From NCBI GenBank assembly GCA_951406725.2, contig OX597818.1:29078001-29142000 (forward strand): 64,000 nucleotides of DNA, written 5' to 3'. This DNA comes from Octopus vulgaris. Its lineage: Eukaryota. Position numbers and translations under genes: made by a program. Positions 895-52,414 of the stretch are shown here, piece after piece. Each line of letters begins with the position of its first letter. The stretch's first letter is position 1. The notes below the pieces were generated by a model. That model searched no databases. It had not been told where the DNA came from and saw nothing but the letters and a program-made list of their open reading frames with translations.

Positions 895-1547
895 ATCGAA
901 ACTGGTTTCAAAGGAAAAAGACTACACATGGTATAAATAGGGGAAAAGTAAAAAGAAACAAAGAAAATACATACTAGGTATAGAAGTAATGGCTTTCTTT
1001 TATAAAAACAAAGATATATACATACAGATAAATGATTTGAGGAGGAATTAAGAAGTATAAAATCATTATTATGAGTCAATATAGAAAGTCATACCGGTTT
1101 TGTCATTGCTGTTCACTGACTTTGAATCAACACCGATTTCCAAATGATGTTGGATCTAATAGTACCCGAGTGAAAAGATTGCATGCAAGGGAGGTAAGCA
1201 GTTCTGAAAGTGATGCAATTAAGGTAGATATGATTAATAGAATATGAATGGTATATGGGATGTATGAGGATTAGTGGTATTATTAGTATTAGTAAGGTTA
1301 GTAGTGTCTGTATTAAGTTGTGTGTTCATGTTAAGTTGTGGTTGATATTAAAGTTGCCTGTTTATTTAATCTTTGCTGCACTGAGATGTTCTTGAAACAT
1401 TAATAGAGAGAGAAGATTAAGAAGTATGGTTTAAGGTTCCTAGTACATCGCTCTATGTGCTCACTGACCTGCATCTGTCTATATTGTAGGAAGCAGATTT
1501 GTTCTTTGTTAAGTGTTGTTCTTTGTCTGAGGGACATTCGTGTTTGG

Positions 1548-1556
<9 letters not shown>
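895..1556 (-). mobile_element. Penelope-like element 3' fragment (GIY-YIG C-terminal half plus terminal repeat)
   Basis: Minus strand from ~1556 reads [43 protein letters not shown], homologous to the GIY-YIG end of the PLE at 36730-38465; hammerhead-like motif downstream. Confidence 0.75.
1085..1123 (-). ncRNA. Minimal type I hammerhead ribozyme motif, G3-C8 core, G12A-decayed
   Basis: Minus strand: AAAGUCA-GUGAACA-GCAAUGAC-AAAA-CCGG-UA-UGACUUU; 7-bp stem I, palindromic CCGG stem III, GUA site; GAAA appears decayed to AAAA. Confidence 0.6.
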
Positions 1557-1591
<35 letters not shown>

Positions 1592-1611
1592 TATATATGT
1601 ATAAAGATATG

Positions 1612-1664
<53 letters not shown>

Positions 1665-1668
1665 TATG

Positions 1669-1749
<81 letters not shown>
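1550..1749. repeat. (TA)n / (GA)n microsatellite
   Basis: Direct reading. Confidence 0.95.
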
Positions 1750-1754
<5 letters not shown>

Positions 1755-1901
1755 ATATCTATATAGAAATATATTACAGATATAGGGTAAAAATTATTAA
1801 TTTAATAAAATTAACAAATTTTACCAAGTAGTTTTCAGTATGGAAAAGAACCATATTTGGTAAAAACTTATACAAAAAGTTGTTTTTATATATAATTATA
1901 A

Positions 1902-2185
1902 TAATAACTAAGGGTTTAGCAACAAGCTGCTTGACCACATACCAAAAATTTTAGAAATAGCAGCCAAAAGATTGTTATTTCTTTTTTCTACAAAATATGT
2001 CTCCACAGATAACACTTATTTGTAACTCATTTCATTATTTTTCTTCTTTTTGCCTATGTGAGTTACAAATAAGTGCTATCTGTGGAGACATATTTTGTAG
2101 AAAAAAGAAATAACAATCTTTTGGCTGCTATTTCTAAAATTTTTGGTATGTGGTCAAGCAACTTGTTGCTAAACCCTTAATTATT
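1902..2185. repeat. Long inverted repeat (~128-bp arms, ~29-bp spacer), probable PLE-type fold-back
   Basis: 1902-2029 is the near-perfect reverse complement of 2059-2185; flanked by TA-rich runs. Confidence 0.9.
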
Positions 2186-2249
2186 AATATATAGAAATAT
2201 ATATATATATAAATATATGAATATATATATAAATATATATATATGTATA

Positions 2250-2370
2250 TATATAAATATCTAAATGTATATATATATAAATATCTAAATGTATATATAT
2301 ATAAATATCTAAATGTATATATATATAAAATATCTAAATGTATATATATATCTAAATATCTAAATGTATG
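2250..2370. repeat. ~24-bp AT-rich minisatellite (ATATATATAAATATCTAAATGTAT)n
   Basis: About five tandem units visible. Confidence 0.85.
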
Positions 2371-2420
2371 TATATATATATATATATATATATATACAAG
2401 CAGTATATATATATATATAT

Positions 2421-3747
2421 ACAAGCAGTATAGCCGGGATTAAGTTAGGAGTATTAAGTTAATCAAGTTTCAAAACAAAGTAACACTGACAGGAAATATG
2501 AGCGAAATCCGTTGAAAATGTTAAACATTTGGCTGAAAATGGGTTGCAGACAATTTGATTGGAAATCCCATAAGAATCAGAGTATCGATTTTTCCACTCA
2601 TTGATTGGGTTTTTTTTTGGGGGGGGAGAGAACAAAATACGTCAAAATTGGTAAAAGTTATGGTTGAAAATAGGGTGTAGCCAATCTTAGTGGGAAATCC
2701 TATAAGGAATCGGTTTATTGATTTTTCATCCTGATTGAATGGAAAACCCTATAAGGAATCAGTTTATTGATTTTTTTTTACACCAAATAGGACTTAACCA
2801 AGCACAACATTGCTGATTCAAAAATGTCTATATTTATACTTTAAAGTTGGTTTCCACACCCAACCCAGTTCTGCAGAATCAGTGTCACGACAGGAACGCA
2901 TGGGTTGGGAGTTTGACCAGCAGAAGCAATCAGGTTGCACATGCTGGCCCTTTCAAAAACTTCTAAGGCTTCCACTTCACCCAACCCCATTTTTCGGATC
3001 CCAAAGAGGGTTTTGTAGCATTTTCGGAGGTCACAGGAATTCATTCAATGAAAAAAATTCCCAATTTTTTCCAAACAAAAATAAGGGATTTGCAGCATAT
3101 TAGAAGGTCAGGGTACTTGATTCCATGCAAAAAAAAAATCCGATTTTTATTTTTTTCCCTTAGTGAAAATCATGTGGATGAAAAGACCAATGGAGTGGGA
3201 GTAAAATTTCTGAGGCTTCCACCTTACCCCACCCTGTTTTTCAGATCCCAAAAAGGGTTTTGTAGCATATTAGGAAGTCACAGGAATTCATTTAACGAAG
3301 AAAAAAAATTTCCAATAATTCTGGGATGGGGAGCTCCCCCCTTGGCCTACCCAACTTTTTTCTGAATCAAAATAAGGGATTTGCAGCATATTACGAGGTC
3401 AGGGTACTTGATTCCATGCAAAAAAGCCGAGCTTTTTTTCTTACTGAAAATTGTGCAGGTGTTAATCTGAAAATTTACCCTTTGTTTTTCTTTTTCGCCA
3501 TTGCTAAACAGGGGACTTAACTCATGTTAGCAAACTTATGGATTTCACCAACATGGAAACTGGTAAAAGTTATGGTTGAATGTAGATTTTACAGCTATCC
3601 GCTGGTACCTTGGGAAAAGTAAGTTGACAAAAACACAGCCAGGGTCGTAACCAATTTCCTCCTAAAATTGGAGCAACATGCATGCTAATTTGTGAACGTA
3701 CAGAAATTACATTCGCATACACACACACACACACCCTACCTTTTACG

Positions 3748-3798
<51 letters not shown>

Positions 3799-4569
3799 GA
3801 AAATGTCACATTTATATTGTGTAATTCACTGACAAATTGTTACCTACCTCTTTGTTTTTTTGTTGTTAAATAAATGGATTCTCAACAAAACACTTTTTCC
3901 TCGGTGTAAAATAAAAACAAAACTCTTTCACACCCAAAGTAATGTGTGTGTATGAGAGGGGGAAGAAAGATAAACGATTAAAATAAATAAATAAGTGATT
4001 TAAAATAAATATATTTTAATTGTTGTGTGAGAAAGTATATTATAAAATATAGTGTCTTTCAAATAATTATAAAATATAGTGTCTTTCAAAAACAACCTAA
4101 ATTTGAAGACTATATCTCGTGTTTAAGAAAAAAATTTTACATTTTTATTGTTGATGAATGCTGTCTCGTACTATCTCTCCCTCACACACACTTTTTCTTT
4201 ACATTTGTTTTTGTTAAACACTGTCAAACTCCCTCTTTTTCTCTCACACACACACTTTCTATTTACATTTTTTGTTAGATGCAGTCAAACTCTCTCTCTC
4301 CCTCACACACATACACATGCACTTTCACTTCGCTATAGCAAGAAAGGGTCTTAACTCATGTTAGCAAACTTCAAAATTGGTAAACGTTAGGGTTGAAAAT
4401 CAATTTTTACGGCTATCCGTGGGTGTCTCGGGAAAAATAATTTGACAAAACCCAGCTAGGCTCGTAACGAATGTCCTAAAATTGGAGCGACATGTGTACT
4501 AATTTGTGGACATGCATAAATTACATTCACGTACACACACACAAACCTCACTTTTATAGATATACAGAT
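2421..4569 (-). mobile_element. Non-autonomous Helitron-like element with duplicated subterminal block
   Basis: Minus-strand 5' end aTCTGTATATCTATAAAAG (~4569) and 3' end CCCGGCTATACTGCTTGT (degenerate CTAG end, ~2421); homologous to 23847-25953; block 3515-3750 repeated at 4348-4560. Confidence 0.65.
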
Positions 4570-4575
4570 ATATAT

Positions 4576-4900
4576 CTCTATATATAAAACTGAAATGCGT
4601 TTTTACCGCTTGGATCGCTTTCAAGGCCACTACATCCCGTCCGATTCACTCCAAAATTTACAGGGACATGTAAAATGAGGTGACGATGCCGGTGGGCTAC
4701 CTTAGAAATCCCTATCTTAAAAGGTGTCGTTGCTAGGGGCCAAAAACCCACTTTGACAAGTCCACTCCCGTTCTTTTACGTATATGTCTTCCTCACTCAC
4801 TCACACTATTTCCTCCATTCCCCTCTAACTCCCTTTCACTTTCCCTTTATAAGTTCGTCAAACGGCGTTCTTTTATGTATCTGTCTGCATTCGTAGAGAG
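4576..4900 (+). mobile_element. Helitron-like 5' end (non-autonomous), right boundary unresolved
   Basis: aTCTCTATATATAAAACTGAAATG start followed by CCGATTCACTCCAAAATTT, a motif type common in non-autonomous Helitrons. Confidence 0.45.
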
Positions 4901-6233
4901 AATTAATCATCGCCACCAACAACACACAATCATGAGAACAAATATTATGAATCAGATATTTCTTGCGTTCATTTATATATGTGTGTGGGTGTGTGTTCTA
5001 TATATAAATATGTATATATAATGTATATATACAAAGTCTATATTTCTGTATTTATGTATATTAAACTTTTTAATACTTTTTGATAGTTACATAAAGGGAA
5101 CTGGTTGCTTCTTTACACTTTTTGTGTGCAACTTGGGTGCGAGACAGATAATTTTCTCTGTTAATTACGTGACCAACAGGGGTCTAACAGGGGGAAATTA
5201 TGCCTAAACATGAGCGCAGCGCATGTGATCATCCGACGTGCTTTGAGTCGGGAGAAGAATTGAGCTGACGCAGATGTGTTGCAAAACAAGGGAGTACACG
5301 TGCAGAACAGAGGTGCATGAGTGCAATAGGTCTTGCTAGGCTGAAATACAGTGTACAGTATTGAATATGCCAGTGATTAATGCAGTAAAGCTGAGGCTGC
5401 CAGCCAGTGCTTCAGCTATTATATGCCTCGGTCATGCAGGAACAAAAGTGTGGCATGCTGGCGCGTTGTAAGGAACAAACAACTTTCTCTATGTATGCGT
5501 GACCGACCTAGGGTCTTACAGAGATGAGTTGTGTTTACAAGGGCACATTGAGCATGGAAAACAAGCGAGAAAGGCATGTGTGGCGTATGAATGTGACAGA
5601 GATAGCATTTGTGTGTGTATTAACTATGTGTGTTCGTGTGTGCGACAAAAGTACAAACAAGGTGTATGCGGGCAAAACAAAATACAGCGCATAGGAAAAG
5701 TCTCTCAGGTATTTCAGACAAGATAGAGTTAATTTACCAGTTCGTAGTAAAGTACATAATAGCAGTTCGTTCTGTAACAGGATGTTCGGATCACAAGTGC
5801 AGATGCCGGTTGAACACATGTCGTGTAGCGGTTGTGGCTTCAATGCTGTGCCAGGTTACATTGGTACAGAAGATCTCGCAGGTAGTGCTGTGCTGTTAAC
5901 CTCGGTGAAAATCATAACAGTATGAAAGCTAAACCTGAATGAGTGCTATGTACATATTAATGTTGCTGGAGTTGAAGGCGACAGAGATGGAGACGACATG
6001 AAGTTGAGGGACGACGATGGTGATGGCGACGGCAGAGAAAGGCGACGTTGAGATGAAGGCGTCGGTGGCGTTGCTGGTGTATGTTAGCGTCGTCATTGGC
6101 TGGAGCAGGAACACGACTGGCTGGTCTGGTCGTCTGTCGCTGGAACTGGAACATGGTTGAGTAAGCTCTGTGTGGATGAAGAATGCGGCGGATTGATTGG
6201 TTCAGACTAGGTAGAAACTAGATTTTAGCTAAG

Positions 6234-6342
6234 TGTTCTATGGTCTATGACCAGAACTCGGGAAACTTGGTTGACTGTTCTATGGTCTATGACCAGAACT
6301 CGGGAAACTTGCTTGACTGTTCTATGGTCTATGACCAGAACT
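6234..6342. repeat. 42-bp tandem repeat x2.6 with internal hairpin
   Basis: Unit TGTTCTATGGTCTATGACCAGAACTCGGGAAACTTGGTTGAC starting at 6234, 6276 and 6318. Confidence 0.9.
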
Positions 6343-6785
6343 TGGGGTCACCACTGTAAAGGGAACTGGTTGCTTCTTTACACTTTTTGGGTGCAACTTG
6401 GGTGCAACACAATTTCCTTTCTTTTGTTTCTAGAAACTACCAGTCAGGAACAAAATGCAAGTTTAAAAATATATATGATTCTTTATTCTCTTATTCACAA
6501 ATGAAGCACGTTGGTATATTAGTATCCACTTAGTTCAACACAGCAAGGCTGAATTTTAACGTTTGTAAGAATCTTACAACAATTCAGCAGCAATAGAACA
6601 GGTCAAATCCTTAGCGTCTGGGACAGGAGAATAGGCTGATCACACGTTTAAAAATACGTCCTTTCTCTTCGATCACCGTGTCTCAATTCAACGACGCTAT
6701 TAAGGAACGCGGTAGAATTTCTTCCCCAGTCTCTAGCGCATGTGCATGAGGGAACTTCCTTATGCCTTTCCAGAAGGTTCCAACC

Positions 6786-6925
6786 CCGCACACGCACACT
6801 GAAGAAGGACGTTCCGCACACGCACACTGAAGAATACGTTCCGCACACACACACTGAAGAATACGTACTGCACACGCACACTGAAGAATGACGTTGTGTG
6901 TGCGCACACTGGAATATGACGTCAC
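6786..6925. repeat. ~27-bp minisatellite x5
   Basis: Unit CCGCACACGCACACTGAAGAATACGTT repeated with divergence. Confidence 0.85.
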
Positions 6926-7183
6926 TACAGTTATATATATTTTTAAACAAATTATAAATATAATTTAATAATTTTTATTTTAAATTTAAATAATTTAAAT
7001 TTTTCAATTTTATATTTTATATATTTTCTATATTATATTTTTATTTTTATGTTTTTGTTTTTGGTTTTTCACTGTTTGATTTGCCTATTAGTGGTTTTAT
7101 CTCTAATTTAATTTATACATATATATATGTATACATTTGTATATATAATGCGTGCACACACACACACACATATATATATACAC

Positions 7184-7228
<45 letters not shown>

Positions 7229-8016
7229 GTATGCATTATGTGGTCGGTCGGTTCAGCTGAAAATATGCACACCTATGTCTAAAGTGCTGGCAAGTTTGCA
7301 TGACAACAATTTTTTTCCTCAAATGAAAGGCGTGACCTCTAGGACAAAATTCCTCATCTTATAAAATGTGGCCCCAGTAGACCCGAATGAAATCGGGTTA
7401 TATTAACCAAAATGTGAAAAGGTGTCTAAATGGGGCTGGAAGGGGATTAAAATTTAAATGAGCGAGTGTTTAGGAATTCTCTGTTACATCAAGCTAAAAA
7501 ATTTGCGCCAGCCTTTTAATCGTCAATGTGTTGCTGTCCATGATGAAGAAGTTTTCAATGCTTGCCATGGTGAGTCTACTGCCGTAAGAAAGAATCACTT
7601 CAAAACTTGGTGTTTACGAATTTTCTTTTACATCAAGTTCAAAATTTTACGCCAGCCGTTAAGCTGTCAATACATTGCTGTCCGTCGTTAAGAAATGCCA
7701 GCCATGGTGACTCTACTATCCTCAGATTCTATCCCTTCAAACTTTCGTTTCCAATATTTTATTTTTTTTATTCAGCTCGCAAGTTCGTCTGTCCCTTTTG
7801 AATGTTAGCGTTTTGCTGTCTGCCTTGAAGCAGACCTTTCCGTTGCCACTGCATGATATTTGTGATTGATCTTTCTAAATAATTTATTTCTCAACTTACT
7901 CAAGATCTTTGGTTGTTTATAAATGGGAGAGAGAGAGATAAAGATAGAGAGTAAGAGAAAGCGAGAGAAAAGAAAAGTAAGAAAGTGGGAAAGTGAGAGA
8001 GAAACAAAGAGGGAGA

Positions 8017-8330
8017 ATCATCATCATCACCATCGTTTAACGTCCGTTTTCCTTGCTAGCACGGGTTGGACAGTGTGACCAGGGTCTGGGAAGTCAGGAG
8101 GCTGCACCAGGCTCCAGTCTGATCTGGCAGTGTTTCTACAGGTGGATGACCTTCCTAACGCCAACCACTCTGTGTGTGTAGTGGGTGCTTTATTCGTGCC
8201 GCCGGCACAGGTGCCAGGGGGGCTCGTAGCGTCAACGATTGGTTGGTGCTTTTTACGTGCCACCGGCAGAGAAGCCAGTCAAGGCGGCGCTGCAATCGGC
8301 CACATTCAGATGGTGCTTTTTACGTGCTGA
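8017..8330 (-). mobile_element. RTE LINE 3' UTR/tail fragment with (GAT)n end
   Basis: Same sequence as the 3' UTR of the RTE at 31582-34545. Confidence 0.85.
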
Positions 8331-8409
8331 AAGGAACCAACAGAAAGTAACAACCACACTCTTACCCGCACGTAGAGCGGGTCACCTTCAGCTAGTATAT
8401 ATATATATA

Positions 8410-8469
8410 TTGATTGATTGATTGATTCCAGTTTTAGCTTATGAGCTGTGGCCATGCTGGGGCACTGCC

Positions 8470-8470: not shown

Positions 8471-8506
<36 letters not shown>

Positions 8507-8559
8507 CATATATAAACATGTGTATATATACATATATAAAGAAAACCTTCCGTTTCGCG

Positions 8560-10160: not shown

Positions 10161-10251
10161 TTTTAGTACAATCGTTTCATACAAGGACAGGCTTTATTAA
10201 AAGTTGCAAAAATTACAGCATATAAACGTGTCCTGTACTCATCAGCTAAAA
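10161..10251 (-). ncRNA. Type I hammerhead ribozyme, canonical C3-G8 core, enlarged stem II
   Basis: Minus strand: UUUUAG-CUGAUGA-GUACAGGACA...UGUCCUUGUAU-GAAA-CGAUUG-UA-CUAAAA; 6-bp stem I, ~10-bp stem II, GUA cleavage triplet. Confidence 0.85.
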
Positions 10252-10527
10252 TACATGTGAGTTCTCTAGACATCCTATTGGTTGAGGCTATACTCATGAA
10301 GTAGATAATTAAGTAACATAAACAGATTTCCAAAGTTCATTAAAGTTCTTTAAAGATGATGTACAGTCTTATCACAGAATTTTAAAAAAGTTTTAACAGC
10401 ATCACAGAGAAGGTCACCTTCTCTGTGATGCTGTTAAAACAATGGGAGTAGGGTAGAGAGCCCCAATAGCATCCCCAGCATCATTTCCCGCTATAGCAGC
10501 ACCACGGGCAGTAGCAATGACAGCACT

Positions 10528-11067
10528 TTGATAGATAGTGGAGAATCAGGGGTTATTCCTATAGTTAATAGTGACGTAGTGGAAAATAGAGTAGTAAGCG
10601 GCTGCAGGTCTCAGAACGAATATAGTGACAGGAACGCAGTTCTAATTTCAGAAACTAATCCTAGCAGAATTAGATTCACGTCGGCGAACTCCAAGATCAA
10701 AAACGCCGTCTACCAATGCAAGGTTTACACGGACTCAGATGTCTTCACTTATGTAGGGGCCTCATCCTCAAGATTGTCTTTGCGTGTCTCCAACCATTAC
10801 GCAACTTTTCGGGACATGAACAAGCGCCAGACCACGGGACTCAGTAAGCTAATATGGCGACTGAAGGATACGAACTTAAGCTACAGGCTGGAATGGTCCA
10901 TTTTGTCGGTGGCCCTCCCATTTGATAGGGGCAGAAGGCAGTGCAACCTTTGTGTCTCCGAACTCTTCCATATTTTGTTTGCCAGAGGCCGGATGGTAAA
11001 CGGGCTTTTACAGTCGGCTTTTCGATGCCCCCATTGGCGGCGTTACACTTATCTGGCTTTTAAATAG
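10528..11067 (+). pseudogene. GIY-YIG endonuclease domain of Penelope-like retroelement
   Basis: KNAVYQCKV..TYVGASSSRLSLRVSNHYATF..TGLSKLIWRLKD..LEWSIL..QCNLCVSE, the PLE GIY-YIG pattern with CxxC. Confidence 0.85.
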
Positions 11068-11531
11068 CGTTTATAAATAATACCGGCACCCATAGCCCTT
11101 GGTAACAAATTATGAAATAGCCTTTAAGATATCTACGATTAACCACTGCAAGGGGAATTACTCCTGTAAGACAAACGGGGCTTGGTTTTTTCACAGCGGG
11201 GGGTTTCCTTGACAAGGCAGGCTTAGATGAACACACACACACATAAAACATGATATATATATATTTTTTTTCTGCCACCCAACGGTTATCACGGCAGTAG
11301 CCACTGACAGCCGAACGATCAAACGCACACACGTACACAAAAAATGTTTTCTACCCCTACGCCAACACACACATATATAGAACAGTATACACACACACAC
11401 GTCTCTAAGTAGATTTTTTCTCGCCCCTTATAAAACATCCAATATTCTTTAAATAGTCAGAACTTTATTCTCGGTCACAAAGAACATCTACGCACCCTCA
11501 CCCACATGATTGACCGATGCTTGACCCGTTG

Positions 11532-11631
11532 NNNNNNNNNNNNNNNNNNNNNNNNNNNNNNNNNNNNNNNNNNNNNNNNNNNNNNNNNNNNNNNNNNNNN
11601 NNNNNNNNNNNNNNNNNNNNNNNNNNNNNNN
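11532..11631. other. Assembly gap (100 N)
   Basis: Run of N. Confidence 1.
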
Positions 11632-11790
11632 ATAGCTAACAAGGGTGGTCATCTTAGCAACTGAGGGTATGTCTGAAGGGGCCACTATGAACAGCAGTGG
11701 CCCCAAGACAGTGCCCTGTGGAACACCGCATGTTATTTGTGCTTTCTTGGAGGTGGCTCCATTGACCACAACTGCCTGCCTTCTATCTTT
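11632..11790 (-). pseudogene. CR1-group LINE RT fragment
   Basis: [28 protein letters not shown], same family type as 17100-19832. Confidence 0.8.
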
Positions 11791-12070: not shown

Positions 12071-12476
12071 TATTGTTATTGCCATATTAATATGGCATTC
12101 TTATAGATATAAGAATAATCGCTGCCGCTGGTCAGCTCCATGAGGCCACCGCCTTAAGATAGCTATTGATACACGATCTGTATCCATTATAACCTTCCAA
12201 CAAGGGAGGTCAGCCACTTCACACTGCCAGTCCGACAGCTACAGACGCGTTTCGAGGTATTGCCCCTTGTCAATGTAGCGCACTCAGACCCCAAAACGCA
12301 TCTGTAGCTGTCGGACTGGCAGTGTGAAGCGGCTGACCTCCCTTGTTCGAAGGTTATAATGGATACAGATCGTGTATCAATTGCTATCTTAAGGCGGTGG
12401 CCTCATGGAGCTGACCAGCGGCAGCGATTATTCTTATATCTATAAGAATGCCATATTAATATGGCGATAACAATTA
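12071..12476. repeat. Long inverted repeat (~185-bp arms) with hammerhead motif at the turn; PLE-type fold-back
   Basis: 12071-12257 is the near-perfect reverse complement of ~12289-12476. Confidence 0.9.
12238..12279 (-). ncRNA. Minimal type I hammerhead ribozyme motif, U3-A8 core variant
   Basis: Minus strand: GCUACA-UUGACAA-GGGG-CAAUA-CCUC-GAAA-CGCG-UC-UGUAGC; 6-bp stem I, 4-bp stem II, palindromic CGCG stem III, GUC site. Confidence 0.8.
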
Positions 12477-20179: not shown

Positions 20180-21400
20180 TGTGTTAAAATGAGGTAGATT
20201 TTGTGAAGCACTTTGAGGTATGATTTAAAGAATGTAGTTGTGTAAAGCCAGAACAATGCAAGAAGGTACAAATTAAATTACAAATTGAAAAGGAAAAAAA
20301 TCAAAGTTGCAGTTTTACCTTTTATTTCTATATTTTGACATGAAGACCCATTCTTCAGGAAATTCAGAAAAGTGGTGGCTGGAAAAAAATTTCTTGCTTA
20401 GAAGTGTGTGTGGTGGGGCAGTGAAGGAGGGAAGAAGTGACATGTGCCGACTGCTGTTGCTATAGCAACTAGTCTGCTTTGTATAGTTTCTTCCTGTCAT
20501 TAATGGCTTGTTTCAATTTATTTATAAGGAGGGCTTCCATAATTCTGAGATTACCCCTGTTGTGTTGTGTTGCTTTAATGGAAACTTTGAAATTCTGGGT
20601 TTAGCACTTCTTGAGGTGTTTCTTTATCAAAGTGTCTATCTGCATATGCTTATTTATTCGAATGTGTAGTTTCCTAGTAGTGCTCCCTATGTAGGGTGCT
20701 CCACATTTATTGCAGAAAACCTCATATACTGCATGTTTTGATGTCATTGATGGGGCAGTTGGTGAGTGTGCACCCGACAGTGCGCTCTTTGGTATTTTTC
20801 ATTGAAAGAGCTTTCTTCAGGGATAGACTGGTGTGTACTAGATGTATGTTAAGTCTCTCGCTGCGGATGGCATGTTGGATAGCTGCTGATGTTCTGTCAT
20901 CAAAGTAGGGCAGTCTAAGGAAGCACGTTTCTGATCTGATGTTATGGGCTTCTCTGTGTTGTTTACCCACTTTCATGATTCACAGAGGCAGTCTTTTAAC
21001 TGTGGATGGTAGATAACCGTTGTGTGCTAAGTTCCTGAGAAACCGCTTCATGCTGATGGCTTTGTCACTTACTTCACTGCATCTGTCCCTTATGCATGTT
21101 ATTTCATTTTTTATATGTACGGTTTTGTCTCTGGTGGACCGGGCCAAATCATAATGCATGAATAGATTCCTAGTCACTGCTTCTTTTGTAAAGATTCATG
21201 TAGATGTAACCATCCTCTGTGATCCTGATTTGGAAATCCAGCAGAGAGAGGGTTCTGGACTTATGTGGATGTTCATTCTCAAATTTATGTGACTGTCAAT
21301 GTAGTTGAATTTTTCATGTATGGAATTTACTCCTTCCTGTGAAGGGGTGAGCATCTCACATTATTCCATCTTTACACAACTACATTCTTTAAATACATAT
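20180..21400 (-). mobile_element. Penelope-like element remnant (RT C-terminus plus GIY-YIG start) with short inverted end
   Basis: LAHNGYLPSTVK, LRLPYFDDRTSAAIQHAIR, CTLTNCPINDIKTC; 20225-20248 inverted at ~21371-21394; degenerate hammerhead at 20324-20363. Confidence 0.7.
20324..20363 (-). ncRNA. Degenerate hammerhead remnant (C3-G8 core)
   Basis: Minus strand AUUUC-CUGAAGA-AUGGGUCUUCAUGUC-AAAA-UA-UA-GAAAU; stem I and CUGAAGA intact, G12 and stem III damaged. Confidence 0.45.
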
Positions 21401-34545: not shown

Positions 34546-34557
34546 ATATATATATAT

Positions 34558-34734
34558 AAAAACAATTGCAGTGTGGAAGGTGTTTATAAGCACAAAGTTT
34601 TGTCAGTGAACAGGTTGCAGTCTCAAAGCGACGAAAATATTTTGACAAATTAAATTTAAATGTTGAAGTGAATCTAACGGTTTTTGTGTGTTTCTTAAAT
34701 GGTTTATAAACACCTTCCACACTGCAATTGTTTT
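34558..34734. repeat. 31-bp inverted repeat enclosing a hammerhead motif
   Basis: AAAACAATTGCAGTGTGGAAGGTGTTTATAA ... TTATAAACACCTTCCACACTGCAATTGTTTT. Confidence 0.85.
34599..34649 (+). ncRNA. Type I hammerhead ribozyme motif, G3-C8 core variant
   Basis: UUUGUCA-GUGAACA-G-GUUGC-AGUCUCAAA-GCGAC-GAAA-AUAU-UU-UGACAAA; 7-bp stem I, 5-bp stem II, palindromic AUAU stem III. Confidence 0.7.
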
Positions 34735-35028
34735 CATTCCATCACATGAACTCAGATCAAGTCACTCACTATGCAAGTATATCACCGTAATATATATATA
34801 TATATAAATTAGAGAAAAGCCACTATTATGTAATTCAAACAATGATAGATGTAAATCATACCATATAGAAAAAATAAAATATATGATAAAACATTTACCA
34901 AGAACACAATAAAGTACATAATAATAAATAAACAAACAGTATATAAATAGTAAATAGACTACATATATTTTGTGGCCATATCTTCAATTTAAATTACAAT
35001 TAAATTTAAATTTAATCGAGCATTAAAT

Positions 35029-36169: not shown

Positions 36170-36700
36170 ACTTAATATAGATATCTCCCCTATGTACATC
36201 ATGTTCATGTCTTTACAAGCACCTTCTATGCATCTTCTGCTGTAAACTACATTTCGAGGTCTACAGTTAATGCCAGGGTTTGAAAAGTCAGGAAACTCCG
36301 TCAGATCACAACTATGTAGGATGTACCCTTTGAGAATACCATATGCACCAATGATAACTGCATGGTAAGTAGGATTAACCCTGGTATTAACTGTAGACCT
36401 TGAAATGTAGTTTACAACATAAGATGCGCAGAAGGTGCTTGTAAAGACATGAACATGATGTACATAGGGGAGACATCTAGGAGCATTGCGGAACAACTAA
36501 ATGAACATCTGAGACAATATGATGACAAAAAACAGTCCTCCATACTCTACCAACATGCCAAAGACCACCACGGAGGCAACTTGGGTCAACTTGACATCCA
36601 CATCTTATCCAAGCACCCAAAAGACCCAACACTCAGACAAATATGGGAGTACATCCTTATAAAGGAAACCTCCCCAATACTAAATAGGAAATATACATAG
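36170..36700 (+). pseudogene. Penelope-like GIY-YIG fragment with inverted partial duplicate
   Basis: + strand NVVYNIRCAEGACKDMNMMYIGETSRSIAEQLNEH..LYQHAKDHH..LRQIWEYILIKETSPILN; 36180-36255 is an inverted copy of ~36404-36477. Confidence 0.85.
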
Positions 36701-36729: not shown

Positions 36730-38465
36730 CACAGAAGATAATCAAACATATTGGGAATGACTAATTTAACATGATTTGGTTCAGAAGGAATAGAATGTTA
36801 CAAGTGGTTAGGTTTTGCTTTATATTTTTTTCAATGAGGTGAGTTTCCTTATTTAAAAATGTTAGAAATGGTTAAGTTTTGGCTTATATTTTTCAATGAA
36901 GAAGGTATCCTTATTTAATCTAACTTGTGTTGGAGTTCCAATGGTACATTGATAGAATGGAAAGATTATAAATTGTGGTAGTAGTTGCTTTGCACATTAC
37001 TCAATATGTTCACTAAAGGGTATCATTCTGTATTCTGGGAATGCAATCTGCTGTCAATGCAGAGTGCATCTGCATCTGAGTGATAATCCCGTGGACCCTA
37101 TGTAGTTTGGTGGCAGCCCAAGAATCTTATGGCATAAATCAGGTTTTCTGAAGCACAAGTAAAATTAGATTTGATTTTGAATTTTTGTCCCTCTTGAAGA
37201 GGAATTCTGATCCTTTTAGAAGGTTTGGGGCATGTTGTGCAATTTGGTCTACCACATTTCTTCACTTTTGCATCCGTTATTTTAGAAAATAATTTTGCCT
37301 TTGTGAGGATCTTTTTTAGTGATTTCAGTTGTTTGTAGCTTTTAATGATTTTATGTATATGTAAAATTTTCTTTAATTTAGGGTCCTTATGTAGCGTTGG
37401 TAAATTTTGGGTGATGATGGTGAAGGCTTCTTTGTTTCTGGGGTTGTATGTGGAAATGTACGGCAGTATTTTCGGTGAAGGTGTGTTGCTGTGTTGAACT
37501 TTTCTTAACGTTTCTATGTCGATTTGTGTTGCACGTCTGATTCCATCCTCTATGAGTTGAACTGGGTAGTGTCTGTCAATTAGGGTGTTTTTGAGTTCTT
37601 GCCATTTAAAGTTTCTGGTATTTTGTTCTGACACTATTGTGCATATCCTTCTTGCAAGGTTGAATGGGATGTTTGTTTTGGTGTCTTGGGTGGCATGAAT
37701 CAAAAAATAGATATTGTCTGGCGTCTGTGGTTTTGTAAAATATGTCCATTTCTGTTTTTAGGTTTATTTTTTTAATTAGTATATCTAAGAATGGAAGCTC
37801 CTTTTGGTTGTACTCCATTGTGAACTGTATGTTTGGGTTGACGCCGTTCAATAGGCTTTTGAATTTTAGGAGTTTTTCTTTGTTTTCATTCTATATTATG
37901 AAACAGTCATCTAGGAAACTTTTCCAATTTTCTTTTATGTATTGGGAAAAGGGTTTCCAAAGGTAGATAAAGATTCCTGGCATATTATTACCTCCAGGTA
38001 GCCCATTGTTAGGTTCGCAATGACTGGTGCTGCCCTAGTACCCATAACAATTCTGAATTTTTAATGGTAAAATGCATTGTCAATCATGACGTGGTTATTT
38101 TGTAGGATGAATTCAATCGATTTAGTTATGAATTCTTTACTGATCCTTTTTGGTATTTCTTCCGGAAATTGATCGAGCCAGAACTGAATTGCCTCTAGGC
38201 CATAATTATGAGGTATACTGGTATATAAATTAACTATATCAAATGAAACCATGATTGTTTCTTCCTTGACTTTTTTTGGAAGGTGATTTTAACATATCCA
38301 AGTCACCTCTGGTATGGCTATTGATGTGTTTAAGGAGGATGACTATAAATAGATTTAGTCTGAGTGATTCACAGGCTGGGCCAGCTACAATTGGTTGTAG
38401 TTTTATGTCCCCTGGGTTTGGTATATGTATGTACGTCTTTGGTGATTTTTTAATGGTTTCATTTA
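36730..38465 (-). mobile_element. Penelope-like element (RT + GIY-YIG), 5'-truncated, frameshifted
   Basis: MVSFDIVNLYTSIPH, MGTRAAPVIANLTMGYLE, FLDDCF, ELPFLDI, YKTTD..YLFFDSCHP, KCGRPNCTTC, NFTCASENLIYAI..YIGSTG. Confidence 0.92.
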
Positions 38466-38501
38466 GAAATTTGAAAAGAAAATATGAAACCGGTTATTTC
38501 T
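38465..38501 (+). ncRNA. Minimal type I hammerhead motif, U3-A8 core variant, at the 5' truncation point of a PLE
   Basis: AGAAAU-UUGAAAA-GAAAAUAU-GAAA-CCGG-UU-AUUUCU; 6-bp stem I, palindromic CCGG stem III, rudimentary stem II. Confidence 0.55.
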
Positions 38502-44611: not shown

Positions 44612-44615
<4 letters not shown>

Positions 44616-44950
44616 GTAAAGACCCCCTTCGGTCATAAATGACCATGGGATTGCACCTAGAAAGTTACCCTCCTAGACACAAGTCCGGGCACGGTTGTTT
44701 ATGGAAGACCAGCAGTCGCCCATGCATACCAGCCTCCCCTCTCCACGCCACCAGTGTTATCCAAGGGAAAGACAAAGGTCGATACAGCTTGGCACCAGTG
44801 ACGTCGCAACTCATTTCTACAGCTGAGTGAACTGGAGCAACGTGAAATAAAGTGCCTTGCTCAAGAACACAACACCCAGCCCGGTCCGGGATTCGAGCTC
44901 ACAACCTCACGATCGTAAGCTCGACGCTCTAACCACTGAGCCATGCGCCA
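44612..44950 (-). mobile_element. tRNA-derived SINE family C (Meta/Deu-like central domain)
   Basis: Minus strand GGCGCATGGCTCAGTGGTTAGAGCG..GAGCTCGAATCCC head, then GTGTTGTGTTCTTGAGCAAGGCACTTTAT. Confidence 0.85.
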
Positions 44951-45059
44951 TATATATATATATATATGATAATAATAATATTAGGGAATAAATCCAAACT
45001 TACAGGGAAAAATTAGATTTAGGATTAAATCCAACTTTATAGTATAAATATATTATTAT

Positions 45060-45198
45060 ATTATATTAAATTAGAGATAAAACCACTATTAAGCAAATCA
45101 AACAGTGAAAAACATAAGCCAATACATAAAATTAATTTAAAAATATAAAAGTTAAAAATTTAAAAAATTATTTAGATAATTTAAACTTATCAATTTAA

Positions 45199-45230
<32 letters not shown>

Positions 45231-45469
45231 GTAGGTATATCTTTATATCTATATATTATTTTATTTATTTATTTATTTTTTATTTATTTATTTATTTATT
45301 TATTGATTGATTTTTTATTTATTTATTTATTTTATTTTTTTAATTTTATTTTTTTTATAAATATCAAAAGTATTAAAAGTTTAATAAAAGATAAAGAGCA
45401 TTAATTAATTTTATGTATTGGCTTATGTTTTTCACTGATTTGCCTAATAGTGGTTTTATCTCTAATTTA

Positions 45470-45476
<7 letters not shown>
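45060..45476. repeat. Inverted repeat (~80-bp arms) of a dispersed AT-rich family
   Basis: TAAATTAGAGATAAAACCACTATT...ATAAAATTAAT mirrored at 45402-45476; related sequence at ~7065-7112 and ~34805. Confidence 0.8.
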
Positions 45477-45537
<61 letters not shown>

Positions 45538-45541
45538 CATA

Positions 45542-45602
<61 letters not shown>

Positions 45603-46009
45603 TTCAATACAGGTTATGAGAGGTAATGGTGTCAATAAGACCAAAAGGTGTCAGGTAATGCTGAGTAATTGCTATGGATAGACCATAGTTAAGCTCTAGG
45701 TTTGGTGATTATGCGAATAAGGCTTGGATTTTCATCTCATGCTGAAAAAAAAATTTATATACACATGCTGATGTGTAACCTATATTCGACTCCTTATTCG
45801 CACAATCACCAAACCAGGAGCTTAACTATGATCTGTCAATATACTTCATATATACATGCATGCATGTATGCATACATATATACATACATACATACATACA
45901 TAAATGAAATATATATATATACTTCAATACATTATGGCTAAAATTGGTCTTGGCCACTTAGTAGATCAATCTAAGCCATTTTTAAGTCGAGCTTTGTGGT
46001 ATCATGGCT

Positions 46010-47398
46010 TATTACCTCTGCCAAGTAAGGAGGTTATGTTTTCATCAGCGTTGGTTTGTCTGTCTGTCCCACTTTGTGCATAATAACTCAAAATGTTGTG
46101 AACAGTAGTTGATGAAACTTGCAGGAAAATTTAGTAATAACACAAGGAACAAATGATGAAATTTTGGTAGTGGTCCAGGAATTTTTACGGATTCTTGAAG
46201 GATTTTTCATTTGTTATATTTGCTTTACATGAAGTATTACAATGTTACGTTCTTTGATTATCTCTTTTGAAAACACGTTCATGTTTTCATGTTATCTATG
46301 GTTGTGTTTCTGTTTCCAAAGTTTATTTTTGTTTCTCTATTAGTAATTTTACTTACTTATCTATCTTACTAGAAACTGATGGATAAAGAGATGAAATTAC
46401 ATAAACAAATGGTAGCGAAACAATCTGCACTCGTCCATCTGTTGTTCATGAAATCAACAGGCTTCAACGTCTGAAACTTTACCTTCTGCTGCTCCCACAG
46501 TTACTCATGGATGACTGCAGATTAGACTGCTCAGTATCATGTCCTACTTTGAACATGAACAAAACTTGAAAGCGGACAACACTCTTCAAAATGTTGATGT
46601 GTTTTGATTCATGGAAATGTTCTTGAAGCAGAATCAACAAGTAGCATCCATCCTACCGCAGTTGAAGAGCAGACAGTCCTGCTGCACTGGGGTGTGGAGA
46701 TGGGGTGATGACTGTTGCAAAGCAGGAGATCACCCCCACAGATATACATTTGAATGTCAGTGGCTTAGAGTACACTGCTGTTGTGGTAACCATCTCATCA
46801 ACAAAAATCAGTATCATCACCATTTACAGATCTCCTTCCGTACCAGTTGCTCCTTTCCTCACCAGCCTGCATCATCTTATAAGATCTCTGCCAAGGAATC
46901 ATCTGACCATTGTCCTTGTTGATTTCAATGTGGATCTTCTTGATTCCCTTAACCATGAGATCTTGACAACTATGAACCAGTTTGGATTCGACCAACTAGT
47001 CCAAAAACCCACCACCGACTATGGAAGCCTGCTAGATCATGCTTACGTGAACCAGGATCAGCATCCACAAGTCACCATAACCAACTGTTAGTTTTCCCAC
47101 CATGACGTTGTGTGTGTATCACTTAAGTTTTAGTTAATTGTTGTTTCTTTTTAGTTGTATGGTGAAACTAGCTTGCTGTTGTCATTGATGTATTATAACT
47201 GCTTCAGATGATTCCTGTTTTTAGAAGGTTCTTTTCCTAAAATCATATGGCCGTGTTATTTTTTTTTTACCCCTGCCAAGGAGGTTATGTTTTTGCTGGC
47301 ATTGGTTTTGGAAATTCGGCAATTTTCAGCATGTGTGTATATGGGTGGAAATGAGCTGCTTGGTGGAGGTCTGCACTCTCCAAGTGCTTTTCTAGTTG
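46010..47398 (+). mobile_element. Helentron (Helitron2)-derived element carrying an APE endonuclease remnant
   Basis: Subterminal inverted repeats TTACCTCTGCCAAG / CTTGGTGGAGGT, GTCTGTCTGTC run, 3' hairpin GCACT-CTCCA-AGTGC then CTAGTT; internal IITIYRSP..IVLVDFNVDL..QLVQKPTTDYGSLLDHAY..SHHD. Confidence 0.8.
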
Positions 47399-47419
47399 AA
47401 ATAAGGAGTTGTTGACTGA

Positions 47420-49460
47420 GATGTATTTAAGTATTGGTGGCTTGTCTGGTATTCCTTGAAGAAAATTTGTCCAGATATTGTATGAAATTAATGAGATCTT
47501 TTCCTTTATAGATTTGTTTTGGACTAATGTTAAGTAGAAAAATGTGTTGCAATGTGTTTATGTGTTGTGAACCTGAATTGTGTAGGGAGTGACACATGGC
47601 ACTGGGTGCCATGTGTCACTCCCTACACAAGATGAATTCTGAATTTGATGGCAATGCTGGTGTTATATCCTCCATTGTTAGTGGTGTTGGAAAAATAAAG
47701 TTTAAGAAATTTGGAATGGTCCCAATAATCAAGATTAATCATACATTTTAATTTTTTTAGTAATTGCTCTATGGGTTTAAATTCATGTAATGTTTTATTT
47801 GGTATGGGAGACTATAAGGGGAAGTAGTTTTCTAGGTGTGGCTATACTAAACAAAAAAGAGGAATGATAACATTTAATGCCCTGGACCAGAAACTCTGAG
47901 GATGCAGGAGCTCATCCTGCAAGCTATATTGAATTTGTTATTGATATAAGTGCTTCTTGAAGGAAGTAGATAAAGTTGTTTGAGCACATTCTCTTTTCTA
48001 AAGTGCATGAGTTCAAATTCTCCATTTAACAGCTTGTTGTTTCTGTCTGTGACTTACAGCACACAAATCAAACTGGGTCTTCTTCTCCCCTGATAAGTTT
48101 TTGAAGCTTGGTGTCATCTCTGAATATTTTCATTTTGATGTACTTGATGACAGTTGTGATGTTATTTATACAGACTATGAAGCAAAGTGGACTCAGAATG
48201 TCCCCTCAAGGAACACCACTGGTGACTTGCTGTGCTCATGGATTCGATTGAACACCACTTGTTGGGTTCTGCTCGCTAGGAAATACTTGATCCAGTGCAT
48301 TCCAGTCTTGAAAAATTTTAGTATTAGGATGTTGTGGTTGACTCTATCAAAGGCTTTGCTGAAGTCAACATATATTACATCAGTATTGAAGCCTTCTTCC
48401 AAATCTTCATGGGTAAAGTGTTCTTATTGATGCTGACTGTGGATGTTGTTGGTGGTAGTATTTTAATTAGTTAATATTTTTATTATTAAATCTTTTGATT
48501 CTCCTGATGTGTGTTTTCTTTCTCCCTCTTGGGAGTCTGTTTCTGTCTGTGTATTGAGTTTTATCGGAGTGGTGTATTTTAAACATGTACAGGTTACAAT
48601 GTTCTCAAACCTTTATCAGGTTGTTGCTTCATTATCAGAGGATGTCTGTGAGTGAAAGACTAGTTAATAAATGGCAGATCTTGTCTAATTGCTCCTGTAT
48701 ATGCTTTATGAAAATTGATGTTATCAAATGGGAGCAGGGGTGAAAGAGTGACTAATTTCTTTTTTCTCATACTACTAAGATTGCAAAGTGCCATGTAATG
48801 GTCTGGTGTAAGAGTACTTTCAGCTGAAATGTTTTGTTTGGAGCTAGAGTGATTTCTTTATATCAAGTCCTAGATATTTTTGTTTTGTCTTGTTGTTGGT
48901 TTAAGTACAAGTGTGGGTAGGAAAAATTCATCCATTAAATTAAATAGCAATTCTGCTTCTGCTTTGTATGGTGTTGAGATGCAATTTCCTGGTTTCAGTG
49001 TACTTGTGGTCCAATTCACACAAGCAATATTAAAAAATCATCTATCATTGATTTGTTTCCAGAATTGTGGAAAGGACTTGATTTCATTGTGGCACTCTTC
49101 AAAGCCTTGCAGAAATGCCTGAGGAGTCCTATAAAGACAAATAATGATTATACTTTTAACTTTGTTGTATAATGACATAGATTGACAGTAGCCATTAGAA
49201 AATGTGTCATTGGCATCCATAGCAAAGGAATCATGGTGTAAAATAGTTTTTCCTCTTTTGTTTAGGCCAGTGTGATTTGCATGGATGATGATGAAATTTT
49301 TCATCTTGGCATCTATGTGGAAGTCATTTTGGAGGGTTTCAGTTGGAATAAATACTGGGGTGCAGTGTGTTATTTCAGCATTCCAACCTTCTATGTATGA
49401 AATCTTCCATTTTTAGCATTGAATTGTGGATGGATGCCTGATATATTAAGAATGGCAATA
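47420..49460 (-). mobile_element. Old CR1-group LINE, heavily degraded
   Basis: IICLYRTP (APE), DVIYVDFSKAFDRVNH (RT), 3' part resembling 43571-44470. Confidence 0.75.
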
Positions 49461-49464
49461 TATA

Positions 49465-49503
<39 letters not shown>

Positions 49504-49527
49504 AATATATGTATATATATTATTATT

Positions 49528-49826
49528 ATCATCATTTAGCGTCTGCTTTCCATGCTAGCATGGGTTGGATGGTTCAACTGGGGTCTGGGAAGCCAGAAGG
49601 CTGCACCAGGCCCAGTCTGATCTGGCAGTGTTTCTACGGCTGGATGCCCTTCCTAACGCCAACCACTCCGTGAGTGTAGTGGGTGCTTTTTACGTGCCAC
49701 CCGCACAGGTGCCAGATGGGGCTAGCAAACGGCCACGGTCGGATGGTGCTTTTTACGTGCCACCGGCACAGGGGCTAGACAAGGCTGCCAATGGCCACGA
49801 TCGGATGGTGCTTTTTACGTCCCACC

Positions 49827-49828
<2 letters not shown>
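49528..49828 (-). mobile_element. RTE 3' UTR/tail fragment
   Basis: Same tail and ~62-bp units as 31582-32040. Confidence 0.85.
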
Positions 49829-49882
<54 letters not shown>

Positions 49883-49885
<3 letters not shown>

Positions 49886-50856
49886 TCATCATCATCTTTG
49901 ATTAATGTCCATTTTCCATGCTGATATGGGTTGGACAGTTTGACTGAGGTCTGGAGAGCCAGCGGCTGCACCAGGCTCCAATCTAGTCTGGCAGAGTTTC
50001 TACAGCTGGATGTCCTTCCTAATGCCAACCACTCTAAGAGTATAGTGGGTGCTTTTTACATGTCCCTGGCATGAGAGCCAGTAAGGCAGGTTTGGCAACG
50101 GTCACATTTGGATGGTGATTTTTATGTGCTACCAGCACAGGAGCCAGTTAGAGGGTACTGGCATCGGTCATGATTGGTCGGTGCTTTTTATGTGCCACTG
50201 GCACAGGAGCCAGTAAGGCGAGACTGGCAACGAATGCATTTGGATAGTGCTTTTTACATGCCACCAGCACAGGAGCCAGTCAAGCAGACCTAGCAGCAAC
50301 CATGTTCAGATGATGCTTACTACATGCCATCAGCATGGGGAGTCAGTCAGCAGGCACTGGCCCCAGCTACAGTATTAGTTTTACCTGATTCGACTGGTCT
50401 TCTCAAGCATATCATATTGCCTGACACATCAAGAATATTCTTAACAGGGTAGGGCGTGCATGACTGTGATCTCACTTTAGTTGCTGGGTCTTCTCAATCA
50501 CAGCATATCTCCAAAGGTACCGATTTCCTGTCATTGTTTTTGTGAGTCTCAATGTTTGAAGGTCATGCTTCACCACCTCATCCCATGTCTTCCTGGGTCT
50601 ACTTCTTCCTCAGGTTCCTTCTACAGTTAGGGAGTGGCACTTCTTCACACAGCTGTCTTTATGCATATGTAACATATGGCTATACCAGTGCAGTCGCCTC
50701 TCTTGTGCACCACATTTGATGCTTCTTATAGGCAACTCTTCTCTCAGGGCACTTACACTCTGTCATGTATGTACACTGACATTACTCATCCAGCGGATCA
50801 TACTAGCTTCATTTCTTTCAAGGTTACACATGTCCTCAGCATTCATGGTCCATATT

Positions 50857-50860
<4 letters not shown>
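49883..50860 (-). mobile_element. RTE LINE 3' fragment with five-unit 3' UTR array
   Basis: ORF end (GRSRPRKTWDEVVKHD) at ~50565-50610, units at 50048-50370, (CAT)n tail. Confidence 0.85.
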
Positions 50861-50887
<27 letters not shown>

Positions 50888-51678
50888 TCTGACAATGGTT
50901 TAGCTGGTTGAAATTGTCAACAACATTCTTGTATAAAAATAATAAATATGCATAGATATATATGCCAATAAATTATATATACTAATGGATGCATTACAGA
51001 CATTGCTGGCTTCGTATAGGGGTTAACCTAATTATATGGAGTGAAATAGAATATGAAACCAAAGCCTGGGGAAAGGCATGTGATGTTTTAAGTAGGTGCT
51101 AGTGGGAACGATAGAAATTCCACAGAATGAAAAAGATTAGGGAGGCTATTTAAGAAAGAAAGGATGATTTGCATTTTTATTTCCATTTTGCTAAGTTATT
51201 TCACTTCCAATCACAATAATATATTATATAATTTTCAAAATTTCCTCCTGCTTAGCAGTTTATATTTCTCTTTTTCTCTCCAACAAACTTTTTAACTATG
51301 TAATTTCCCTCTTCATGTCTTTAACATTTCCATTTTTTTTAATACCTCTCACTTCCACTAACCACATGAGTGACAGCATAATGCATCAGCTGACTATCTG
51401 TTCTTTCACTCTCTCTTACATTCACTCTTCCTCTCTCTCACTGCCCCTTCTCCTCTTCTTTAACAAACTAAACCATAAAGTGTGAATGAACAGGTAGAAG
51501 AATAATATTAGAGATTTAGTTCAAGAAGAAAAAATACTCTTCACTATCAACATACCACCACCATCACCACCAATATCATCACTGTAGTTTTCAGTAACAG
51601 AGCTCATTTAATTTCAGCTCAACTGTTTGTTTATATCCTTTTCTTTCTGTTGATGTATCTCTCCAACGCTATCTACTG

Positions 51679-51718
<40 letters not shown>

Positions 51719-52323
51719 TACACACACACACACACACTGCCTCCTCTGTACCTGCCCTTCTTTAGCCTCACCACCAGAACCTCACCCGCTACTGAATATT
51801 GTCTACTAAAAATATCTTTCTCTTTACCTTTCTTTCCCCATCATACAGCATGTCGTTAACACTTCTCTCTCCCTCTTTTTTCTCACCGTCGTTTTCCTCA
51901 CTCCATTCAGCTAACCACATGATGCATTTGGCCTTACTATACATCTTTCTCTACTTCTTTCTTCTCTATTCTCTCCTCCCTCTCGCACTTTTATTCCACC
52001 TCTCACGCAATACACCTGCACCTCTCTTACTAACCAATGTGCAGCGGGTGAATGAACAAGCAGATTACTATATAGATTGAGTGACTGGTCATTAAGCATT
52101 AAACAGATATCACTTGTGTCCAGTTATCTCCCCCTCCCCCCTCCCCATACTTTTCTGTCCACTGTCAATTCTTGTTTAGGAATTTGGAGTGAATTTATAA
52201 CTGCATCACATATCTGTCCAACCACATATACTGATGTGCACACACATTGGTACATGTACACCCTGAAATGCCATACTACATATTGAGATATACACGAGAA
52301 AGAAGCAACAAGAATGGATTAGT

Positions 52324-52414
52324 TTTTAGTACAATTGTTTCATACAAAGACAGGCTTTATTAAAAGTTGCAAAAATTGCAGCAGATAAAAGTGTCCCGTA
52401 CTCATCAGCTAAAA
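52324..52414 (-). ncRNA. Type I hammerhead ribozyme, C3-G8 core, enlarged stem II (second copy)
   Basis: Minus strand UUUUAG-CUGAUGA-GUACGGGACA...UGUCUUUGUAU-GAAA-CAAUUG-UA-CUAAAA; palindromic CAAUUG stem III; within repeat 52295-52575 homologous to 10130-10390. Confidence 0.85.

Follow-up and report, generated by a model that had tools for sequence, protein, structure and literature searches.

The window analysed here is a 64-kb stretch (G000:C5:29078001-29142000; 37% GC) of the 2.8-Gb Octopus vulgaris genome which contains seven motifs shaped like type I hammerhead ribozymes. Motifs of this kind terminate Penelope-like elements (PLEs) at the 3' side and also occur in retrozyme-like repeats, and their tertiary core pair between positions 3 and 8 is fixed per family as C-G, U-A, G-C or A-U. 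Based on the sequence comparisons described below, it is likely that selection on transposing lineages keeps this pair because the motif would cut itself, presumably at a low rate and in dimeric form. The recurrent, compensated exchange of this tertiary pair represents direct evolutionary evidence for selection on the active fold in PLEs, which matters since PLE hammerheads cleave poorly and proved dispensable when insertion was assayed once in vitro.

According to the proposed mechanism, tandem or read-through transcripts would be cut after the U-H site, with stem III being completed between two copies via its palindrome and cleavage possibly being helped by the element's protein. The identity of the 3-8 pair could change as long as pairing is kept, because it is the 2'-OH of position 8 that contributes to catalysis, while its base pairs with position 3. 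Switches between pairs would pass through the single-change states U3·G8 and C3·A8, in which elements would still transpose for a while. Lineages with a broken 3-8 pair could spread briefly and would persist only after regaining one of the four Watson-Crick pairs.

Hammerhead-shaped motifs of the window

All seven motifs claimed in the initial annotation were found with cores exactly as written there, whereas the positions it had assigned to them denote the left end of stem I and not the core. The motifs and the associated remnants are as follows.

1085..1123, minus strand: family B type I motif, core GUGAACA, G3 at 1116, C8 at 1111, G12 (1101) lost; 7-bp stem I, 1-2 bp stem II
1343..1549, minus strand: family B GIY-YIG endonuclease remnant, upstream of the motif (tblastn 38% over 69 amino acids (aa), E 2e-8)
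10161..10251, minus strand: family E motif, canonical core CUGAUGA, position 3 at 10245; 6-bp stem I, long stem II; strict descriptor match
12072-12258 and 12288-12474, no strand assigned: inverted arms of a retrozyme-like repeat unit surrounding the family C motif; 86-87% to the L033 tandem unit
12238..12279, minus strand: family C motif, core UUGACAA, U3 at 12273, A8 at 12268; 6-bp stem I, 4-bp stem II, CAAUA loop; strict descriptor match
20324..20363, minus strand: family F motif, canonical core CUGAAGA, position 3 at 20358; 5-bp stem I; decayed (G12 lost, stem II broken)
34556..34737, plus strand: short family A Penelope-like 3' fragment with a small inverted arm (34556-34589 versus 34704-34737)
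34599..34649, plus strand: family A motif, core GUGAACA, G3 at 34606, C8 at 34611; extra G at 9.1, 7-bp stem I, 5-bp stem II; strict descriptor match
36871..38430, minus strand: family D broken open reading frame (ORF) for reverse transcriptase (RT) and GIY-YIG endonuclease, forming the inverted arm of the 38465 insertion
38465..38501, plus strand: family D motif, core UUGAAAA, U3 at 38471, A8 at 38476; 6-bp stem I, 1-bp stem II; strict descriptor match
52324..52414, minus strand: second, younger family E motif, canonical core CUGAUGA, position 3 at 52408; 6-bp stem I; strict descriptor match

Positions 3 and 8 are complementary in all seven motifs, as the initial annotation had stated. The literal core C3-U-G-A-N-G8-A is matched by three of them, the other four being U3-A8 (families C and D) or G3-C8 (families A and B). 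The claims of a paired stem I (5-7 pairs), a palindromic stem III (one with a wobble) and a U-H site likewise hold for 7/7 motifs; an interrupted, weaker stem I was observed in families J, K and I2 and in the family F consensus. The GAAA sequence ascribed to most of the motifs is present in 5/7, and those at 1085 and 20324 read AAAA. These two represent decayed copies that lost G12 at a CpG, which is kept in their respective families B and F. Accordingly, G12-A13-A14-A15.1 together with U16.1-H17 is found in 5/7 window copies.

A strict descriptor leaving positions 3, 7 and 8 free and specifying GAAA, a palindromic stem III, U-H and at least 5 pairs in stem I recovered five of the seven motifs, omitting the two decayed copies, and matched nothing else in the window; 20 block shuffles gave no match. 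In a fixed-interval sample of 390 kb from elsewhere, four strict matches were obtained, which are too few for a family census but all Watson-Crick at 3-8 (shuffles gave 0.4 each, none Watson-Crick), so that the window is several-fold denser in such motifs. In terms of predicted stability, irrespective of geometry, two-copy folds exceeded two monomers. Of 189 Rfam matches in the window, the 150 that were listed did not include a hammerhead but were microsatellite-driven miRNA matches, and none was obtained in 8 reference loci. This negative result is uninformative because canonical C3-G8 copies, those in L036 and L270, were missed as well.

The seven motifs, initially ascribed to elements with unrelated flanks, amount to six families and not to seven separate cases: those at 10161 and 52324 belong to one family, and the families of 1085 and 38465 are related at the protein level. 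Their assignment as PLE-associated applies to 5/7 motifs; the motif at 12238 lies in a retrozyme-like repeat devoid of ORFs, and no ORF link was found for that at 20324. TA repeats and remnants of long interspersed nuclear elements (LINEs) are abundant in the window.

Core pairs across families and their switches

Genome-wide searches with family-specific patterns left positions 3, 7 and 8 free, with the reversed pattern as control; core states were counted by eye, and the matches listed covered only the first contigs. For family A, 7406 matches were obtained, 7187 of them with G3, and G3-C8 was found in 94 of the first 100 listed. Among the first 100 listed of its 219 non-G3 copies, 91 keep C8, two are compensated and none is C3-G8, a pattern of ordinary decay after insertion. 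Family B showed G3-C8 in 31/35 matches. U3-A8 was observed in 100 of the first 100 listed for family C (375 matches in all) and in 98 of the first 100 for family D (1628 in all). Reversed-pattern controls for families A-D and I gave 0 matches each. The canonical core CUGAUGA was present in 25/25 loci of family E, and aligned relatives of family F carry CUGAAGA with a 4-bp stem II. Furthermore, positions 3 and 8 of family A were without a variant at ≥10% in 4 runs (four organism codes).

The proposal that several families possess fixed non-canonical cores is thus borne out, families A and B having G3-C8 and families C and D having U3-A8 instead of CUGANGA, and the tabulation of positions 3 and 8 per family identified the odd cores as family traits, ruling out copy-specific decay. 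Covariation of 3 and 8 holds between master lineages, whereas single copies decay at the two positions independently. In their majority state, families A-K are complementary at 3-8, the exceptions being subfamilies with U3·G8 or C3·A8. Position 7 varies within families without tracking position 3. Kept across families are U4, G5, A6, G12-A14, G10.1-C11.1, the palindrome and stem I, and the catalytic G12 as well as the U-H site, in which H is never G, were present in every family looked at. The stems change by paired substitutions, as exemplified by one stem II pair between families A and J; one stem I pair is present in B and absent in G, and the motifs of families A and B have no stem sequence in common. 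Stem II comprises 4-7 pairs in families A, C, E, J, K and M and just 1-2 in B, D and I.

Beyond the window, a generic search was directed at motifs whose stem III loop is CCGG or CGCG; families A, E, H and J, having other loops, are outside these counts. Sorted by position 3, it retrieved 7754 U, 1651 A, 469 C and 327 G motifs (controls: 255, 211, 109 and 156, respectively), some of the C and U rows being false upstream starts. The numbers of U3 and A3 motifs, as compared to C3, show that CUGANGA-based searches yield undercounts. The A3 rows were mostly A3-U8. Hence, the panel of C-G, U-A and G-C described initially was found in full and proved incomplete, as the fourth pair also occurs. Family I (685 matches, 6-bp stem I) showed A3-U8 in 97 of the first 100 listed. 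In family G, the first 100 of 123 matches listed comprised 76 A3-U8, 17 G3-C8 and 7 other cores.

Family G was examined further by projecting 20 A3-U8 and 6 G3-C8 copies on one reference, with four mixed-state copies left out. The majority base differed between the groups at 8 of 488 columns, and perfect separation (20/20 versus 6/6) occurred only at positions 3 and 8, one further column having p=0.002. Identity was 89% between the groups and 90-91% within them. Family M, which is retrozyme-like, comprises sisters of ~90% identity with C3-G8, C3·A8 and U3-A8. Near-identical sisters such as A3-U8 versus G3-C8, the three forms of family M, and U3-A8 versus U3·G8 represent ready natural controls. 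Besides, family G copies at L067, L075, L094 and L095 feature short tandem duplications at the 5' junction, extending from just upstream into the hammerhead core.

Nineteen proteins, some of them incomplete, were placed in a quick maximum-likelihood tree; L121 was dropped, and the 69-aa family B fragment of the window was too short for inclusion. Three deep lineages resulted. Lineage 1 comprises families H and E, both C3-G8. Lineage 2 unites family A (G3-C8) with its sister J (C3-G8; 9 motifs, A9 replaced by C, one compensated stem II pair), and lineage 3 contains K and D (U3-A8), I (A3-U8) and B/G (G3-C8 and A3-U8). Single clades for all G3-C8 families (p-AU 4e-7) and for all A3-U8 families (p-AU 1.5e-4) were rejected by the AU test. 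G3-C8 occurs in two distant Penelope-like lineages, one of them young with an intact ORF. Counted by hand and without direction, the sequences indicate at least five switches of the 3-8 pair, namely four to five double changes on the tree and one in family M; one switch, that in family G, separates subfamilies of ~89% identity. Family J, which is young with open frames of 1312 aa, has the core CUGAUGC, in which C replaces the conserved A9, and its stem III is not palindromic (nine motifs, one of them at L255:4218-4265).

A more far-reaching reading of these sequences is put forward tentatively, namely that in this lineage the pair was exchanged among all four Watson-Crick forms at least five times with surviving single-change intermediates, that elements which are young and still transposing possess active ribozymes of the purine-3 type, and that CUGANGA censuses miss a large share of animal hammerheads. 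If the purine-3 forms are indeed active, the families would constitute a natural mutational series for testing PLE hammerhead function.

Proposed selection on the core pair and competing explanations

PLE hammerheads and natural U3-A8 cores, in PLEs as well, are known (PMC4209133, PMC3088659, accessible parts). In the accessible text of Perreault et al. 2011 (PMC3088659), the C3-G8 pair is reported to covary to U3-A8 in several natural hammerheads, U3-A8 being the only form named there, whereas G3-C8 and A3-U8 occur here in addition. U3-A8 is also described for ~1,300 Schistosoma PLE motifs, with one U3·G8 in Fig. S3 (Cervera and de la Pena 2014, PMC4209133). The octopus motifs resemble the PLE pseudo-LTR (long terminal repeat) motifs described in that work in being of type I with a palindromic stem III, G10.1-C11.1 and an optional 9.1 nucleotide, and in their location behind RT and GIY-YIG, mostly in single truncated or inverted copies. 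In contrast to the cores of Fig. S3, which are only C3 or U3 as far as accessible, purine-3 cores are fixed here in abundant families, all four pairs coexist in one genome, and several families have a stem II of 1-2 bp. The small PLE hammerheads of Lünse, Weinberg, Breaker (RNA Biol 14:1499), as summarized in the available part of PMC6765202, share the short palindromic stem III, the PLE association and the dimer model.

Engineered C3G/G8C changes, the PAc PLE hammerhead included, are reported to leave single mutants dead and the double mutant partly active (Frangieh et al. 2024, PMC11167929, accessible part), and a review, as far as available, describes G8C as strongly damaging and partly restored by C3G (PMC8495972). 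These are laboratory mutants, whereas in the octopus the same swap characterizes whole families from two PLE lineages. Moreover, position 8 is described as acting in catalysis through its 2'-OH (PMC6155905, accessible part). Natural G3-C8 or A3-U8 was not found in the literature searched, which yielded engineered forms and U3-A8 only; the Lünse et al. collection and most subscription papers lie outside this coverage, which limits the novelty. The corresponding terms were also absent from PMC11014351. The sequences presented here add a panel of all four pairs from a single genome, the switch within a family, two origins of G3-C8, and the intermediates.

Several observations weigh against maintenance of the pair by selection on a cleaving motif. 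The Watson-Crick rule at 3-8 is not absolute, as two small subfamilies were amplified with U3·G8 or C3·A8. A subgroup of family D has G8 in 30 of the first 100 listed of its 201 matches; the G8 loci read show U3·G8 in 3/3 cases together with their own diagnostic flanks, and one has an uninterrupted RT-endonuclease frame. C3·A8 is present in three family M insertions, between U3-A8 and C3-G8 sisters, with 6 rows in the generic search. Families B, D and I combine a stem II of 1-2 pairs with monomer folds predicted to be weak (-0.8 to -5.8 kcal/mol), the motif is complete and uncut in most copies of family A, and the C for A9 in family J indicates that the core tolerates other departures. Furthermore, PLE hammerheads are reported to cleave poorly even as dimers (PMC4209133, accessible part), and cleavage of a lizard PLE needed protein and was dispensable for insertion in vitro (PMC11167929, accessible part). 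Finally, copy counts are not independent events because subfamily-diagnostic sites are linked by descent.

Some of these findings would also suit a hammerhead fold whose 3-8 pair is kept for a function other than cleavage, for example to bind or position the RT of the element, with variant cores that barely cut. The uncut family A copies, the minimal stem II of B, D and I, the continued spread of the mismatch subfamilies and the unprocessed RNA described as the dominant insertion substrate of the lizard PLE (PMC11167929, accessible part) are in line with such a role. We nevertheless regard it as unlikely, as a structural role alone would not obviously need G12 and the U-H site, which are kept in every family looked at, and as related PLE motifs do cleave, albeit weakly, according to the accessible part of PMC4209133.

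Less probable still is that the motifs have lost all function, AT-biased mutation having caused drift at positions 3 and 8 of master copies, with a coincidental complementarity then multiplied by amplification. The changes from C-G to U-A and from G-C to A-U are transition pairs favoured in 37% GC sequence, the intermediates U3·G8 and C3·A8 exist, and thousands of copies rest on few independent events. However, the at least five separate compensated switches include double transversions, the two paired positions are the only perfectly diagnostic columns among the 488 of family G, and G5, G12 and G10.1-C11.1 resist the AT bias across lineages whose proteins share only 21-30% identity. That the motifs match a loose pattern by chance, in repeat DNA rich in A and T, would explain the missing Rfam hits and the high background of the generic G3 search (327 versus 156), but is highly improbable and already largely refuted by the empty shuffles, by the cores fixed per family, by the fixed place behind the endonuclease in unrelated PLE lineages and by the failure of Rfam on canonical copies.

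Carrier elements and neighboring features

RT followed by a C-terminal GIY-YIG endonuclease was found upstream of the motif in families A, D, K, E, G and I, with endonuclease remains in the case of I; family B is linked by endonuclease and RT remnants, and its 3' region is common to family G. The family B endonuclease and its PLE are presumably Neptune-like. Families D and K include full-length elements with RT, cysteine linker and GIY-YIG, the motif of family D being located ~150 nt past the stop codon. RT and endonuclease upstream of the family E motif (L270) belong to yet another lineage besides those of D/K and A. Copies are arranged in tandem or as inverted, 5'-truncated units, often in TA repeats.

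Most family A copies are ends of 170-200 bp. Subfamily A2 consists of copies of 98-99% identity with an intact 1025-aa RT and GIY-YIG ORF, whose protein is only 21-30% identical to that of family K. As this ORF ends ~1 kb upstream, an overlap of the motif with the ORF end was ruled out. A Neptune-like ORF in L139 was rejected as that of family A since it is a separate insertion, and an ORF in L121 was rejected as that of family I, being a family D fragment. At window positions 36282-36691, plus strand, a different element from the lineage of family A has left an endonuclease remnant, which is 50% identical to A2. Pfam analysis of two window endonuclease fragments gave no relevant match.

Short family A copies mostly start at or very near an AG that directly precedes stem I (L140:3380-3410, L139, L046, L047; window 34585-34598), and long copies feature a branch-point-like and a pyrimidine-rich stretch ahead of this AG. 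This sequence arrangement suggests a 3' splice site adjoining the family A hammerhead. A 3' splice site adjoining the hammerhead has reportedly been described for Penelope of Drosophila virilis.

Family C units of ~362 bp occur in tandem (L033), as do those of family M (L036), the units ranging from 359 to 363 bp. No PLE ORF was linked to family C in L032 and L033, nor to family F in 15 loci, both being small samples. Read from the DNA units, family C appears to fit non-LTR retrozymes better than PLEs because of the ~362-bp tandem arrangement, the lack of a PLE ORF, and a loop and stem I bulge like those of classical type I hammerheads. Non-LTR retrozymes are defined as tandem ORF-less units of 150-450 bp with a type I hammerhead, which are expressed as small linear and circular RNAs; the ~362-bp spacing lies within this size range. 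Families C and M are thereby similar to metazoan non-LTR retrozymes, as described in the accessible parts of Cervera and de la Pena 2020 (PMC7229834) and Li et al. (bioRxiv 10.64898/2026.07.22.740005), sharing tandem units devoid of ORFs (359-363 bp in families C and M) whose type I hammerhead has a stem II of 4 bp and a CAAUA-type loop. They differ in the U3-A8 core of family C and in the C-G, U-A and C·A sisters of family M.

A LINE between two family C motifs was excluded as carrier since it is inserted into the repeat unit. This intact two-ORF element (L033:1536-6960; G000:C2:114.467-114.473 Mb) is associated with a duplication of ~17 bp and encodes a zinc-knuckle ORF1 and an ORF2 of 1140 aa with endonuclease and RT. 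We assume it to be L1/Tx1-like, and it may target family C units specifically.

The window ORF at 10438-11067 was rejected as the ORF of family E, as it belongs to the separate young family H, which has its own canonical motif. The respective fragment (10438-11531, plus strand) represents a very young PLE with 98-100% identity in 150 of 150 scored matches, 899-aa frames and 3.6-kb tandems; the canonical hammerhead of the family is absent from this window copy. Judged by motifs only, family H fits the description of the Hydra clade (DKT, no CCHH-type endonuclease) in the accessible part of PMC8557442, and the linker with CxxC seen in family A and in D/K would be compatible with Neptune or Nematis. 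An assembly gap of 100 N in the 11600-11700 region separates the fragment of family H from the family C motif. Moreover, near-identical inverted copies of the stretches around 20324, 34599 and 52324 are located just upstream of the window (G000:C5:28.976-29.009 Mb; L002, L052, L227), which is either a recent segmental duplication or an assembly-duplicated haplotype.

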